IMG/VR virus record: IMGVR_UViG_3300035670_000145
Span: 1-64,000 of that record
Strand: one strand, 5' to 3'
DNA: 64,000 nt
From: a virus
Position 1 is the stretch's first letter. Each line of letters begins with the position of its first letter. The position numbers and the translations under genes were made by a program. The notes under the pieces were generated by a model that did no database searches, was not told the origin of the DNA, and was given only the letters and a program-made list of their open reading frames with translations. Below are positions 37,325 to 47,976 of the stretch, one piece after another.

Positions 37325-38773
37325 TTATTCAGCGCAGGCGCTGCAGAAGCCAGCGTCCAAACTGCAAGAGACAGTTTCCTCCTCGGCCTCGCTGTCATCA
37401 AGGCCAAACATGGTCTTAAACGAGTCGTCCAATGCCGCGTAGGCGTCGTCTTTGCGCTGCGTTTCAGGCGTCACCTGAAGAGCATAGTAAAGACTTGTCT
37501 GAGGAGATTCTAGCCAAGTCCGAAGGAACTCTTTGCTATAAATAACTTGATCACTCCAGTGGTTAATCGAATACCCATGGAAAAGACCAGTGTTTTGAAA
37601 TAACTTAACAATATTATTTGCCACCTTAAAAAATGCCTCCCATCCTACTTCTGCCGCAATTTCCACTTCCCCATAGTCAAAACTTTCCACGCCAAAGGTG
37701 CCAGAGTCCCTGTCAACAAGCCGTCCGATGGGAGGGGCAATTTCAGGGGCAGTGGTGAAACCTTTCTTGTCGAGATAGCGATAGGAGCAGGAAGCAGTGG
37801 GAGCAATGCAGAAGGCCCGTTCCATGCCGTGCTCACGAGCAATCTTCGCTGCTGCTTCAATGCCATCGCGAATGGCCTTTGCAGCCCTTCCAGCGGGCTG
37901 CTCGTGCCAGTAATGGCACCATGGGTGGGGATCGTCCTCATTCAGGGCTTCCAGGGCCTTCCCGAAGTCTTTGTAGGAAATGCCATGGAGGGAAAGGAAG
38001 TTGGCAAGACCAAGCATGCCAAGACCCACTTGCTTATCAATAGAAGGGGGAAGGTATTCGCCAGTGTCACCAACGCCTGTGTTGGGATGGAGCTCGCACA
38101 ATTGCTTCATGCCCTCGACAAAGGCTTCCTCTACTTCATCGATGTCGCAAGCACCCATGTTGACGTGCTGAAGAAGGCAAGTGCCACGGTGAGGAAGATA
38201 AACTTCAAGGCAGACATTGGCACGGATGCGCTTTCCTTCTTGATCGTACCGAATTTTGTTAAGCCAGATGTCGCCAGAAGCAATGCCTTTTAGCAGCTCA
38301 TCAATAAGCTCTTGAGAAGAGTTCTCAATAAACTGTTCATCCACATTCACACACCTCTTCACCCATGGAAGCTCTTGACGAGAAGCTTTGATGAAATCAA
38401 GAATGTCAGGATGCGAATAGTCAAGATGAAGCACTACGGCCCCATTTTTATAGCGTCCGCCTCTGCGAAGAATTTCATTGAGCGTGGAATAAATTTTGCC
38501 GAAGCTAATGGGACCACTTGCAACAAGGCCTTTTCCATTTTCATCGCCTTTGCCACGCAGCTCAGACAAATGCACTGCTACGCCTGCACCATTGCGCAGG
38601 CCATGAGAAACAAAACGCCACGATGCTTCAATGCCATTTTCCCCCTCCATTGAATCATCCACGACGAAGACCGTGCAGCTTACGGGCAGTCTTCCGTCTG
38701 CTTCGTCAAGCCAGCTTTGCACACGACCGGTGCGAGCAATCTTTTCACACTTCGCCTGTTCCTTGAGCTTCAT
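37325..38773 (-). CDS. nrdA: Ribonucleotide reductase alpha subunit (compact Cyano SP type)
   Basis: PVSCTVF, NVCLE, TCLL, IAPTASC, SLYY, C-terminal C..CAE. Confidence 0.9.
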   Translation of the reverse strand: MKLKEQAKCEKIARTGRVQSWLDEADGRLPVSCTVFVVDDSMEGENGIEASWRFVSHGLRNGAGVAVHLSELRGKGDENGKGLVASGPISFGKIYSTLNEILRRGGRYKNGAVVLHLDYSHPDILDFIKASRQELPWVKRCVNVDEQFIENSSQELIDELLKGIASGDIWLNKIRYDQEGKRIRANVCLEVYLPHRGTCLLQHVNMGACDIDEVEEAFVEGMKQLCELHPNTGVGDTGEYLPPSIDKQVGLGMLGLANFLSLHGISYKDFGKALEALNEDDPHPWCHYWHEQPAGRAAKAIRDGIEAAAKIAREHGMERAFCIAPTASCSYRYLDKKGFTTAPEIAPPIGRLVDRDSGTFGVESFDYGEVEIAAEVGWEAFFKVANNIVKLFQNTGLFHGYSINHWSDQVIYSKEFLRTWLESPQTSLYYALQVTPETQRKDDAYAALDDSFKTMFGLDDSEAEEETVSCSLDAGFCSACAE

Positions 38774-46176: not shown

Positions 46177-46249
46177 GAGCCTCGCGGCCCGTTGAAAGAA
46201 CAATAGAGCAGGAGAGGCCCCTGGAAAGGGGCCTGTAACAATGCTTCAC
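46177..46249 (-). promoter_or_regulatory. Early promoter cassette 1
   Basis: GTGAAG-N4-GTTACA, GC hairpin, TATTGT -10, GCGA-loop leader hairpin. Confidence 0.7.
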
Positions 46250-46632: not shown

Positions 46633-46718
46633 GGAAGCTCGCGCCTCCGAACAAAGGAAGAATAGAGCAAAAAGGGGCTGTTGCCAGCCCATGAATCATT
46701 GGCTTCACAAATCGTTGC
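46633..46718 (-). promoter_or_regulatory. Early promoter cassette 2
   Basis: GCAACG-N4-GTGAAG, GGGCTG-GCAA-CAGCCC, TATTCT, GGAGGC-GCGA-GCTTCC. Confidence 0.65.
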
Positions 46719-46720
46719 AA

Positions 46721-46858
46721 TCAGCGCCGTTGATCACAAATGCCGGCCAGCATTTCGCCCACGTGGGCATGGGCAGCACGAAGCTGGTCAAAGGCTTGAT
46801 CGCGCTCCTTGCGGGCCTGGTAGTAGGCATCAGGGCCCTGAGGGTAGAAGTCGCGGCC
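46721..46858 (-). pseudogene. Orphaned 3' half of the 47379-47636 gene
   Basis: Translates GRDFYPQGPDAYYQARKERDQAFDQLRAAHAHVGEMLAGICDQRR*; no start codon. Confidence 0.85.
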
Positions 46859-47343
46859 TATATGTGTTGCCATATTTTGCGTAAAACAATTTGACTTATC
46901 AACGGCTGTGTTACATTAAATTTTCTCGCCAAAGTATTCGTCGATTCACCACCCGCCGCGTACAATTCTCTTATTTTTAGCACTTCTTTTTCTGTTAATT
47001 TTGCCTTGCAATTTCTTTCACCTTTGGCGCTAGCAAAGATACGTCTTCCTCTTTCGACCATGTCATTGTAATTATCTTGGTCCGTGCCAAGTTCCAAGTG
47101 AAAAGGATTACAGCAAGAAGGGTTGTCACACTTATGGCGCACCAGCATGCCAGTTGGTATTTCTCCAAAGGCAAATTCCCATGCTGCGCGGTGAGCCAGC
47201 ATCTGTCTTTTGTTGACCGTGATTCTTCCATATCCAGACTTGAGTCTTGACTTGGACTTCCATTCCCAGCAAAGATCTACCGGCGCTTCGGTAACGCTTC
47301 CCCAAAGGCGCTGCCATGCCGGCACTTTATTCCATTGTGTCAT
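46858..47343 (-). CDS. HNH homing endonuclease with C-terminal HTH
   Basis: CWEW, GYG, AHR, VRHKCDNPSCCNPFHL..GT..DN, AKLTE. Confidence 0.9.
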   Translation of the reverse strand: MTQWNKVPAWQRLWGSVTEAPVDLCWEWKSKSRLKSGYGRITVNKRQMLAHRAAWEFAFGEIPTGMLVRHKCDNPSCCNPFHLELGTDQDNYNDMVERGRRIFASAKGERNCKAKLTEKEVLKIRELYAAGGESTNTLARKFNVTQPLISQIVLRKIWQHI

Positions 47344-47378
47344 GGGTTAAAAATCAACGACTGAGAGAGTCTAGCAAC

Positions 47379-47636
47379 TCATTGCTGGTTGCAGATACCT
47401 ATCAGAACTTCTTCCACATATTTGTGGGCAGAGCGGAGACTGTCAAAAGCAGCTTGCCTTTCTTGGCGATGCTGGTAAAAAGCATCTGGACCTTGTGGAT
47501 AAAAATCCCGACCATTTGACTCGGCAGCGGCTAGAGCATCAATCGCCTTGTCAATGGCATCGTACGCAGCAGCGTAACCATCGCGCAGGTCGGTGAAGCC
47601 GGTGCCGTTGAGATGGATGGTGGGGATGGTTGCCAT
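47379..47636 (-). CDS. Hypothetical early protein
   Basis: PTIHLNGT...NGRDFYPQG. Confidence 0.75.
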   Translation of the reverse strand: MATIPTIHLNGTGFTDLRDGYAAAYDAIDKAIDALAAAESNGRDFYPQGPDAFYQHRQERQAAFDSLRSAHKYVEEVLIGICNQQ

Positions 47637-47652
47637 GGGAAAGAAAGGAAAG

Positions 47653-47723
47653 GGCGTTGCCGCCGGACAAAGGAACAATACAGGCAAGAGGGGCCGAAAC
47701 CCCTGCTTGTCACAAAGCTTCAC
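47653..47723 (-). promoter_or_regulatory. Early promoter cassette 3
   Basis: GTGAAG-N4-GTGACA, AGGGGT-TTCG-GCCCCT, TATTGT, GGCG-GCAA-CGCC. Confidence 0.7.
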
Positions 47724-47976
47724 AAACAGCGTCAATCAGTTTCTTCTGTGCCACTCGCTTGCCATTAACCTTCCAAATCGTGGTGCTACTCCAGCGACCA
47801 CGGCCCATGCACCGAGGCACAATCCAGCAAGCTATTTCCTTTCCATTAAATTCTCCAGAAGCAAAACCTCCAGCGCTGCTTCCATTTTTGCAGCTCTGAG
47901 AAAATGCTTGGTCATAAAGCTTGCCAGTGAAGACAGTGGCGTCAGAAACAAGAAATAGAGCGTCCATGGTGATCAA
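47710..47976 (-). CDS. Hypothetical protein
   Basis: ORF in operon. Confidence 0.6.
   Translation of the reverse strand: MITMDALFLVSDATVFTGKLYDQAFSQSCKNGSSAGGFASGEFNGKEIACWIVPRCMGRGRWSSTTIWKVNGKRVAQKKLIDAVCEAL

Follow-up and report, generated by a model that had tools for sequence, protein, structure and literature searches.

A small gene of an uncultured freshwater phage was found to be occupied by what is very probably a free-standing homing cassette of the HNH_3 type (I-HmuI-like), which carries its own replacement gene end. The gene lies in a stretch of 64,000 nucleotides (the window), positions 1 to 64,000 of the virus record IMGVR_UViG_3300035670_000145, and the cassette would consist of foreign codons 40-85 of this gene (the target gene), a spacer and an HNH endonuclease gene; behind the HNH gene there follows a startless second copy of the target gene's 3' end, termed here the orphan. 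We propose that in a mixed infection the enzyme would cut or nick HNH-free alleles at or near the boundary between codons N41 and G42, and that repair of the break would use the cassette-bearing genome as template, the gene's 5' part serving as left homology arm, and the donor's orphan 3' half, pairing with the recipient's own 3' half, serving as the right one. The recipient would receive a hybrid gene (its own 5' part joined to the cassette 3' part) together with the HNH gene, its own 3' half would be displaced downstream as an untranslated or stub orphan, and the target gene would remain whole without an intron or intein. This reading is carried by the anatomy of the locus, by its empty-site allele, by recurrence in four lineages at an identical junction with lineage-specific orphans, and by conversion footprints within HNH-free alleles.

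Anatomy of the locus and its empty-site allele

The earlier note on this DNA, made from the letters alone, had described the target gene, the HNH gene and a startless second copy starting from the HNH stop codon; all three were found, as consecutive minus-strand features, where it had placed them (Table 1). A translated search of the whole 73.8-kb record detected exactly two copies of the gene end (65% amino acid identity, E 3e-18). The cassette measures 661 bp (46859-47519, minus strand), running from codon 40 of the target gene to the first two bases (TA) of the HNH stop. Position 46858 (G) serves twice, as the last base of the HNH TAG stop and as the first base of the orphan codon GGC, and the orphan continues in the +1 frame to a TGA at 46723-46721 (product GRDFYPQGPDAYYQARKERDQAFDQLRAAHAHVGEMLAGICDQRR, then stop). 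Native codons 40-41 are replaced by the cassette and the orphan resumes at codon 42; the insertion, which had been assigned to the conserved NGRDFYPQG motif, maps to the N41/G42 codon boundary within it.

Table 1. Coordinates (window numbering) of the target gene, the parts of the cassette and the adjoining features.
Feature	Position	Strand	Remarks
Target gene, copy in use	47379-47636	minus	85-residue open reading frame (ORF), ends ...NGRDFYPQGPDAFYQHRQERQAAFDSLRSAHKYVEEVLIGICNQQ, then stop
Native 5' part, target codons 1-39	47520-47636	minus	113/117 nt identical to L012; identity drops at next codon
Foreign, cassette-borne 3' part in use, codons 40-85 and TGA	47379-47519	minus	~63% nt identity to L012; GC at third codon positions (GC3) 0.36
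Spacer from hybrid-gene stop to HNH start, part of the cassette	47344-47378	minus	35 nt; conserved across six cassettes
HNH_3 homing endonuclease gene (putative)	46858-47343	minus	161 residues; TAG stop 46860-46858; PF13392 match
Orphan, native 3' half, codons 42-86 and TGA	46721-46858	minus	124/135 nt identical to L012 codons 42-end
ATG in orphan frame, five codons 5' of the orphan	46871-46873	minus	50-residue ORF MATHI-GRDF...
Terminator-like hairpin and T-run 3' of the orphan, putative native terminator of the target gene	46665-46690	minus	hairpin scan

A group I intron or an intein-borne endonuclease was rejected as an explanation, as the copy in use is a complete, uninterrupted 85-residue ORF with its own stop, the HNH protein is encoded by a separate ORF, and no intron family was matched at E<=1. 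The residues that are invariant across target homologues are kept in the hybrid gene, in agreement with the suggestion that this gene stays whole without splicing. The Ile-Trp codons ATA TGG, invariant near the HNH C-terminus (conserved K-I-W), create the orphan-frame ATG listed in Table 1; it is present in each of the four orphan-bearing cassettes and opens ORFs of ~50 residues of the form M-x-T-x-x-[GA]RD.... This ATG is probably a by-product of the HNH codons, and the stub, corresponding to helix 2 of the target protein, is a predicted product only.

We examined 80 related viral loci that include the target gene. A single gene copy and no HNH gene was present at 79 of these, L036 being the sole cassette carrier among the 80; the cassette is sporadic at one locus among collinear relatives, and its carriers overall are the window, L036, L086, L088, L090 and L091. 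The HNH-free relative closest in the flanks, L012, is 97% identical to the window over codons 1-39, 92-93% over the orphan and 93% over the 548 nt downstream, and the in-use 3' half matches it no better than indicated in Table 1; the collapse of identity falls precisely after codon 39 (GAG), codon 40 being TCA in the window and CTC in L012. Because L012 matches both the 5' part and the orphan, and because identity collapses at codon 39/40, the intact allele is taken to equal the 5' part plus the orphan, which is the outcome that the earlier note had expected from an alignment to HNH-free relatives. A blastn search with the in-use 3' half gave no match in close relatives, and the tree of 3' halves grouped the window orphan with L006/L012/L007 (support 98/96). 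The sequence outcomes named beforehand as contrary to the proposal were absent from these loci, in that HNH-free relatives fit the orphan instead of the copy in use, and no two-copy loci were seen. Among isolate phages, a distant blastn search with a 2.1-kb query found no isolate with the locus, the only hit being a 124-nt HNH match in Synechococcus phage S-CBS4.

The occupied form was also present in sequencing runs X4 (freshwater, 2024) and X9 (2022), from two studies other than the source, at ~95-96% identity across 46718-47868 and 46826-47583. An empty-site contig from X4 and X9 joins 47539 to 46849, skipping 689 bases (46850-47538) and placing 34 other letters between; read on the gene strand, the 34 letters spell codons 33-44 (...D-ALAKAELNGRD) and run into orphan-like codon 45 (...ALAKAELNGRD/FYPQ...). 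The skipping contig is accordingly an intact native empty-site allele. The empty-site contigs were deeper than the occupied form, contig depth being rough and no measure of copy number.

Recurrence of the cassette and divergence of the two gene ends

Close homologues of the HNH protein (75-77% amino acid identity) were found in L036, L088 and L090, each with the three-part layout, and the junction is the same to the base in these and in the window (TA/G, where G is the first base of orphan codon 42). In the window and L036 the left edge lies at codon 39/40, and in L088 it is within one codon of that; the spacer, of 35-40 nt, is conserved in all six cassettes. The native parts follow the lineage in which each cassette resides: the 5' part and orphan of L036 have their best match in HNH-free L052/L084, those of L088 in HNH-free L053/L054/L051, and the orphan of L090 matches HNH-free L038, whereas the in-use halves of L036 and L088 are only 57-67% identical to their local HNH-free relatives. 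Identity of the orphans is 85-93% to the local HNH-free alleles and only 68-73% among themselves. Full support and short branches place three of the four orphans within different HNH-free clades of the tree of 3' halves; the L088 orphan stands in a weakly supported fork beside L051/L053, and the in-use copies lie on long branches. Because the spacer is conserved and GC3 is uniformly low in the in-use halves (0.36-0.43, against 0.50-0.67 in native parts), the 3' part, spacer and HNH gene are regarded as one linked unit, which has entered several lineages at one precise site.

Two HNH-free alleles carry cassette-like tracts, both centred on the junction. The allele of L005 (4001-4258) includes ~82 nt, spanning codons 39-65, that are identical to the in-use copy of the window, and outside this tract it differs by 14% on the 5' side and by ~38% on the 3' side. 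The allele of L052 (gene 1068-1322), from the L036 lineage, is in-use-like at codons 40-50, and its remainder is ~100% identical to the L036 orphan. These tracts may have been left by cut repair in which only a short stretch was converted, or they could have arisen through HNH loss by recombination between the two copies. P0009 and P0043 resemble these footprints at the protein level. Protein clusters homologous to the target number >300; among the 120 homologue clusters listed, the window-type cassette tail was seen on six different 5' halves (six clusters, P0001-P0007), the S40/H56 signature occurs in nine more clusters and the native L40 in ~87.

The HNH protein matched PF13392 (HNH_3) over residues 49-91 with 55.1 bits (cut-off 24.8), and matched PHROG HNH families at E ~1e-33 to 2e-33. 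Sixty-one columns are invariant among 16 HNH homologues, including H51, H70, C72, D73, N74, C77, C78, H82 and N91, and the catalytic residues presumably lie among this invariant His/Asn/Cys core. A C-terminal helix-turn-helix signal was weak (HTH_7, E 0.009, below the family cut-off), and a profile search of the HNH protein against PDB gave nothing at E<=0.001. A second HNH_3-type gene, with a NUMOD4-like N-terminus, lies outside the window near the right end of the genome (L004; G000 66771-67088), with a classical HNH protein encoded ~300 nt from it; no duplicated gene ends were seen in the surroundings of these second HNH genes.

The in-use 3' half had been read in the earlier note as a synonymously recoded copy, set apart from the orphan by nine third-position codon differences across GRDFYPQGP. 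These differences were borne out, all 9 of 9 codons differing and at the third base only, as was the contrast in composition, the orphan resembling the 5' part (GC3 0.67 and 0.65) and the in-use half resembling the HNH gene (0.36 and 0.43). Only this nine-codon motif, however, is purely synonymous, and the remainder of the repeat has many amino acid changes; overall, the in-use 3' half and the orphan share 59% nucleotide identity and 27 of 44 residues, a divergence too high for a DNA repeat finder, which missed the two copies and reported the repeat of an intergenic module instead. The rate of nonsynonymous substitution (dN) was ~0.26 for the in-use halves and that of synonymous substitution (dS) was saturated, both between cassettes and against their own orphans. 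Between the HNH genes of the cassettes dN was 0.08-0.21 and dS was likewise saturated (dN/dS ~0.05 where computable). Since dS between the HNH genes is saturated, the cassettes are considered old; the substitution rates show the HNH gene and the in-use halves to be both old and under purifying selection, and the in-use half is best described as an anciently diverged, AT-richer allele instead of a purely synonymous rewrite.

The motif spelling in use is 2 nt away from that of L016 and L020, both HNH-free alleles, and four other versions are 3 nt away. Motif differences of at least 9 occur in only 1% of HNH-free pairs, and the window pair is extreme; it sets an unusually GC3-rich native allele against an AT-rich third-position (AT3-rich) cassette, with synonymous divergence saturated. 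The nearest approach to a pattern is native TTC-TAC versus in-use TTT-TAT or a deleted codon, with exceptions, the in-use copies of L090 and L091 being without one motif codon (RDF-PNGW).

Alternative readings of the locus

Several observations weigh against a homing cassette with a replacement gene end. The in-use halves form no single clade in the tree (138 columns, long branches). The cassettes of L086 and L091 are without an orphan, and for this reason the orphan is not obligatory; in L091 the native 3' half is cleanly replaced and homology resumes directly after the gene, which is ordinary intronless homing with a downstream homology arm, occurring within the cassette lineage itself. The AlphaFold2 model of the HNH protein is poor (predicted local distance difference test, pLDDT, 63.8), showing three C-terminal helices, and its top Foldseek match, the I-HmuI structure 1u3e, is weak (E 0.056). 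Among the in-use and native copies compared, no base position separates all of the former from all of the latter, there is no consistent sequence difference between the presumed resistant and the presumed sensitive sites, and the motif spelling in use occurs in HNH-free alleles too. The empty-site contigs of X4 and X9 share only ~90% identity with the window flanks, and because of this they represent related phages, maybe from another population. Finally, we infer cleavage, its position, its allele specificity and the resistance of the hybrid allele from sequence comparison and not from enzymology.

The locus could alternatively combine an ordinary intergenic free-standing endonuclease with an unrelated recombination scar, the orphan being irrelevant to mobility. 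Orphan-less versions do exist in L086 and L091, phage genomes are mosaic, and these small genes are flanked by a repeated intergenic module; yet accidental scars would not recur at one position, whereas the TA/G junction is base-identical in four lineages whose orphans are ~30% apart and lineage-matched, and the left edge is likewise sharp in three lineages, so that we hold this explanation to be improbable. Smaller still is the likelihood of a single ancient insertion inherited vertically, with the HNH-free relatives having lost the cassette by deletion. The age of the cassettes would suit it, and recombination between the copies, a plausible route of loss, would account for L052 and L005, but loss mediated by the repeats yields chimeric alleles and cannot restore native codons 40-41 or the native 3' halves found in L012, L084, L053 and L038; further, the native L40 is carried by ~87 of the 120 listed clusters, and the orphans are far closer to the local HNH-free alleles than they are to one another. 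Tandem paralogues, that is, a family that is normally two-copy with one member decaying in the window, might be suspected from two similar coding stretches on the same strand ~650 nt apart. This reading is refuted by the ~79 HNH-free loci, which are all single-copy, and by the second copy itself, which is startless, being without codons 1-41 and beginning on the HNH stop codon.

A different question is whether the motif was recoded by selection, nine synonymous changes having removed the recognition site while keeping the protein motif, as in the earlier suggestion that the gene was recoded for immunity; such recoding would be compatible with the homing cassette. In its favour, 9 of 9 motif codons differ as against 11 of 21 identical-residue codons in the rest of the repeat (Fisher p=0.013, a contrast picked after the data were seen), so large a difference is rare among HNH-free motif versions, the L005 and L052 tracts both keep the cassette version of codons 40-50, and the in-use copies of L090 and L091 have even dispensed with one motif codon. 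Synonymous sites, however, are saturated over the whole repeat and among all cassettes, an AT3-rich cassette set against a GC3-rich native allele predicts many third-base differences by itself, the in-use spelling is close to that of L016/L020 and of four further HNH-free versions, and no position splits in-use from native copies. The changes track the low GC3 of the cassette, and selection for immunity appears unlikely as their cause. The homing cassette with a replacement gene end, with or without such selection, accounts for the differing histories of the target gene's two halves.

Genome context, generality and known systems

The record is siphovirus-like, with genes for a tape-measure protein, portal, major head protein, ribonucleotide reductase and primase/helicase, and the target gene is situated among small early or replication-region genes. 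Neither the target gene nor its neighbours matched a family in Pfam or PHROGs, and a profile search of the target against PDB gave nothing significant. In the AlphaFold model (pLDDT 85.6) the target protein folds as two long helices (14-37 and 52-83) that form a hairpin, and the Foldseek matches of this model were unspecific. NGRDFYPQG forms the loop connecting the helices and, because the motif lies in this loop of the model, the cassette would replace the loop together with the second helix. In a 482-residue ORF at 37325-38773, matches to ribonucleotide reductase profiles are confined to two separate parts, residues 28-134 (profile positions 274-378) and residues 175-463 (profile positions 375-678), and this ORF may be a shortened or rearranged ribonucleotide reductase.

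The mobile unit had been drawn in the earlier note as a 3' half, a promoter and the HNH gene. The foreign 3' part and the HNH gene were retained, along with the conserved spacer, and the promoter was removed, as the 35-nt spacer gave no promoter-like (sigma-70-like) match; one such match lay inside the 3' end of the HNH gene, which is no more than chance. No terminator-like site was seen between the hybrid gene and the HNH gene, the only hairpin being the native one after the orphan, and because the sole terminator-like hairpin stands there, the HNH gene and the target gene probably share a transcript. Given that the spacer has no promoter, that a terminator follows only the orphan, and that the intergenic module flanks the whole unit, the simplest and most likely reading is that the HNH gene would be transcribed by read-through from the target promoter to the terminator after the orphan.

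The intergenic module, of ~100 nt, stands 3' of the orphan (46643-46724) and 5' of the target gene (47659-47739), with 78-81% identity between the copies, and reads CTGATTG..TTTGTGAAGC, a GC hairpin, and TGCTCTATT(C/G)TTCCTTTGT.CGG.GGC. The part comprising the hairpin and motif precedes the target gene at 47659-47694 (81% identical), and a third copy of hairpin and motif was seen near 46199-46223. The module may represent a terminator/promoter boundary; a search with the short intergenic motif gave 7 matches against 2.3 expected, which is not compelling. In run X2, a sister sample of the source, one contig swaps 28 bases at 46690-46719, just 3' of the orphan stop, for 454 letters, and this replacement would be a further insertion polymorphism in the module; a contig joint in X2 was also found at 47030/47598, and the contigs of run X3 left stretches uncovered.

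Other HNH genes with duplicated gene ends, for which the earlier note had proposed a search, were found by scanning 163 HNH_3-relative loci, comparing the upstream coding sequence with the DNA behind the HNH stop. The 3' form was seen at L115:1062-2402, and identically in L116, on a GC-rich phage-like contig, where a 186-residue gene ending ...WLRYMALDAYGFPAFPLPQTHRIALQKIKWPVLNGY is followed by an HNH_3 gene and, right at the HNH stop, by an orphan, WLRAMALDHYGHPVVPMPAANRAALAKIDWPALDAY, the C-terminal 36 residues being duplicated at 58% amino acid identity; this 186-residue target has no Pfam match and is unrelated to that of the window. A mirror form was seen at 5' ends, in which the native start and the first 16-20 target codons are fused to HNH. 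At L092:1873-2681, an HNH_3 relative (52% identical) lies at the 5' end of a distant target homologue (33% amino acid identity); its ORF opens MPERTLPSIHINGTSRQ..., resembling the target's start and first codons fused in frame, and behind it, with an ATG that overlaps the HNH stop, comes a complete target gene (MDYTLPTIHINGNSRE...). At L139:966-1789 and L161:1080-1837, the downstream gene has its first 19-20 codons (MAVNV[RK]VLIPAKIAEN.QT) joined in frame to an HNH_3 protein, and the full gene follows the fusion. At L159:2-1210 there are, in order, an HNH gene, a 5' gene fragment, a second HNH gene and the full gene, the fragment being 98% identical to the gene, which looks like a cluster built by repeated insertion. 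We tentatively suggest, without quite favouring it, that "bring-your-own-gene-end" cassettes, a class that we did not find described, may be a common vehicle of phage HNH_3 endonucleases.

If general, such cassettes would regularly generate mosaicism inside small conserved phage genes, and their junctions would give endonuclease target sites straight from sequence. The present locus suggests that a homing endonuclease needs neither intron nor intein to insert in the middle of a small protein-coding phage gene if it brings along a substitute for the part displaced. It offers a natural experiment, with empty, occupied, orphan-less and footprint alleles of one gene family in at least four lineages, where the insertion junction narrows the likely cleavage site to a few bases and ready-made, presumed sensitive and resistant substrates exist for a test of the enzyme. 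Where orphan gene ends adjoin HNH genes in viromes, the annotation should be that of an insertion scar and not of a new small gene.

The earlier note had likened the arrangement to fungal mitochondrial homing endonucleases, and this analogy is correct: "gene hybrids" formed by mobile endonuclease ORFs (mORFs) are described for Glomus atp6, atp9, cox2 and nad3 (Beaudet et al. 2013, PMC3630166), a paper that also cites one in atp6 of Allomyces macrogynus. In these a foreign C-terminal part and an endonuclease ORF are inserted, and the native C-terminal part follows; identity to a close relative is 91-98% for the native part and 64-81% for the inserted part (PMC3630166), compared with 92% and ~63% in the phage. 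The mORFs differ in being of LAGLIDADG or GIY-YIG type, some in frame with the gene, and in residing in organelle genomes, whereas in the phage a 35-nt spacer precedes the HNH gene, which has an ORF of its own. The WHO elements at FBA1, the aldolase gene of yeast (Coughlan et al. 2020, eLife; PMC7282813), are the closer match. In the WHO model, the fragment behind the endonuclease gene is a homology arm and every round of homing replaces the target's 3' end (PMC7282813). Shared with the phage locus are an endonuclease gene directly behind a full-length target whose 3' part co-travels, a displaced old 3' end behind the endonuclease gene as homology arm, discordant histories of the target's 5' and 3' parts, and no need of splicing. 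The phage enzyme is of HNH_3 type, however, whereas WHO encodes an intein-derived LAGLIDADG/zinc-finger protein; the phage element would spread in co-infection instead of in a meiotic diploid, and the window has a single cassette in place of a cluster of successive insertions. Allele-specific cleavage was demonstrated for WHO6, and for the phage cassette it is predicted, indirectly, from the sharp boundaries shared among cassettes and from the conversion tracts centred on codons 40-50. Because the enzyme is HNH_3, the likeness to WHO elements and mORFs would be one of mechanism and not of family descent.

Among phages, the intronless homing of T4 SegF, SegG and MobE (reviewed in PMC2988022 and PMC2790892) likewise involves a free-standing endonuclease gene adjoining the targeted gene, and spread between related phages in mixed infection, flanking markers being co-converted. 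The T4 arrangement is exactly what the orphan-less L086 and L091 appear to have; the cassette of the window differs in being inserted inside the gene, with the old half kept. To our knowledge, the T4 cases leave no duplicated gene end. I-HmuI of Bacillus phage SPO1 (PDB 1U3E) joins an N-terminal HNH domain to a C-terminal helix-turn-helix DNA-binding part, a layout that the HNH protein may share, and is the best, although weak, fold match of that protein; it is, however, an intron-encoded nickase, and the sequence similarity was below detection in the PDB profile search. Full-text literature searches returned no phage account of a carried replacement end together with a retained orphan, the nearest being the HNH insertion of mycobacteriophage Omega gene 51 (Pope et al. 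2013, PMC3706429), where a free-standing phage HNH insertion gives the neighbouring lysin A gene a new 3' end. The Omega insertion was described as a 35-bp target loss, with no kept orphan or carried replacement half reported. It is well supported by these comparisons that the cassette represents a known mechanism in a new enzyme family and a new type of host.

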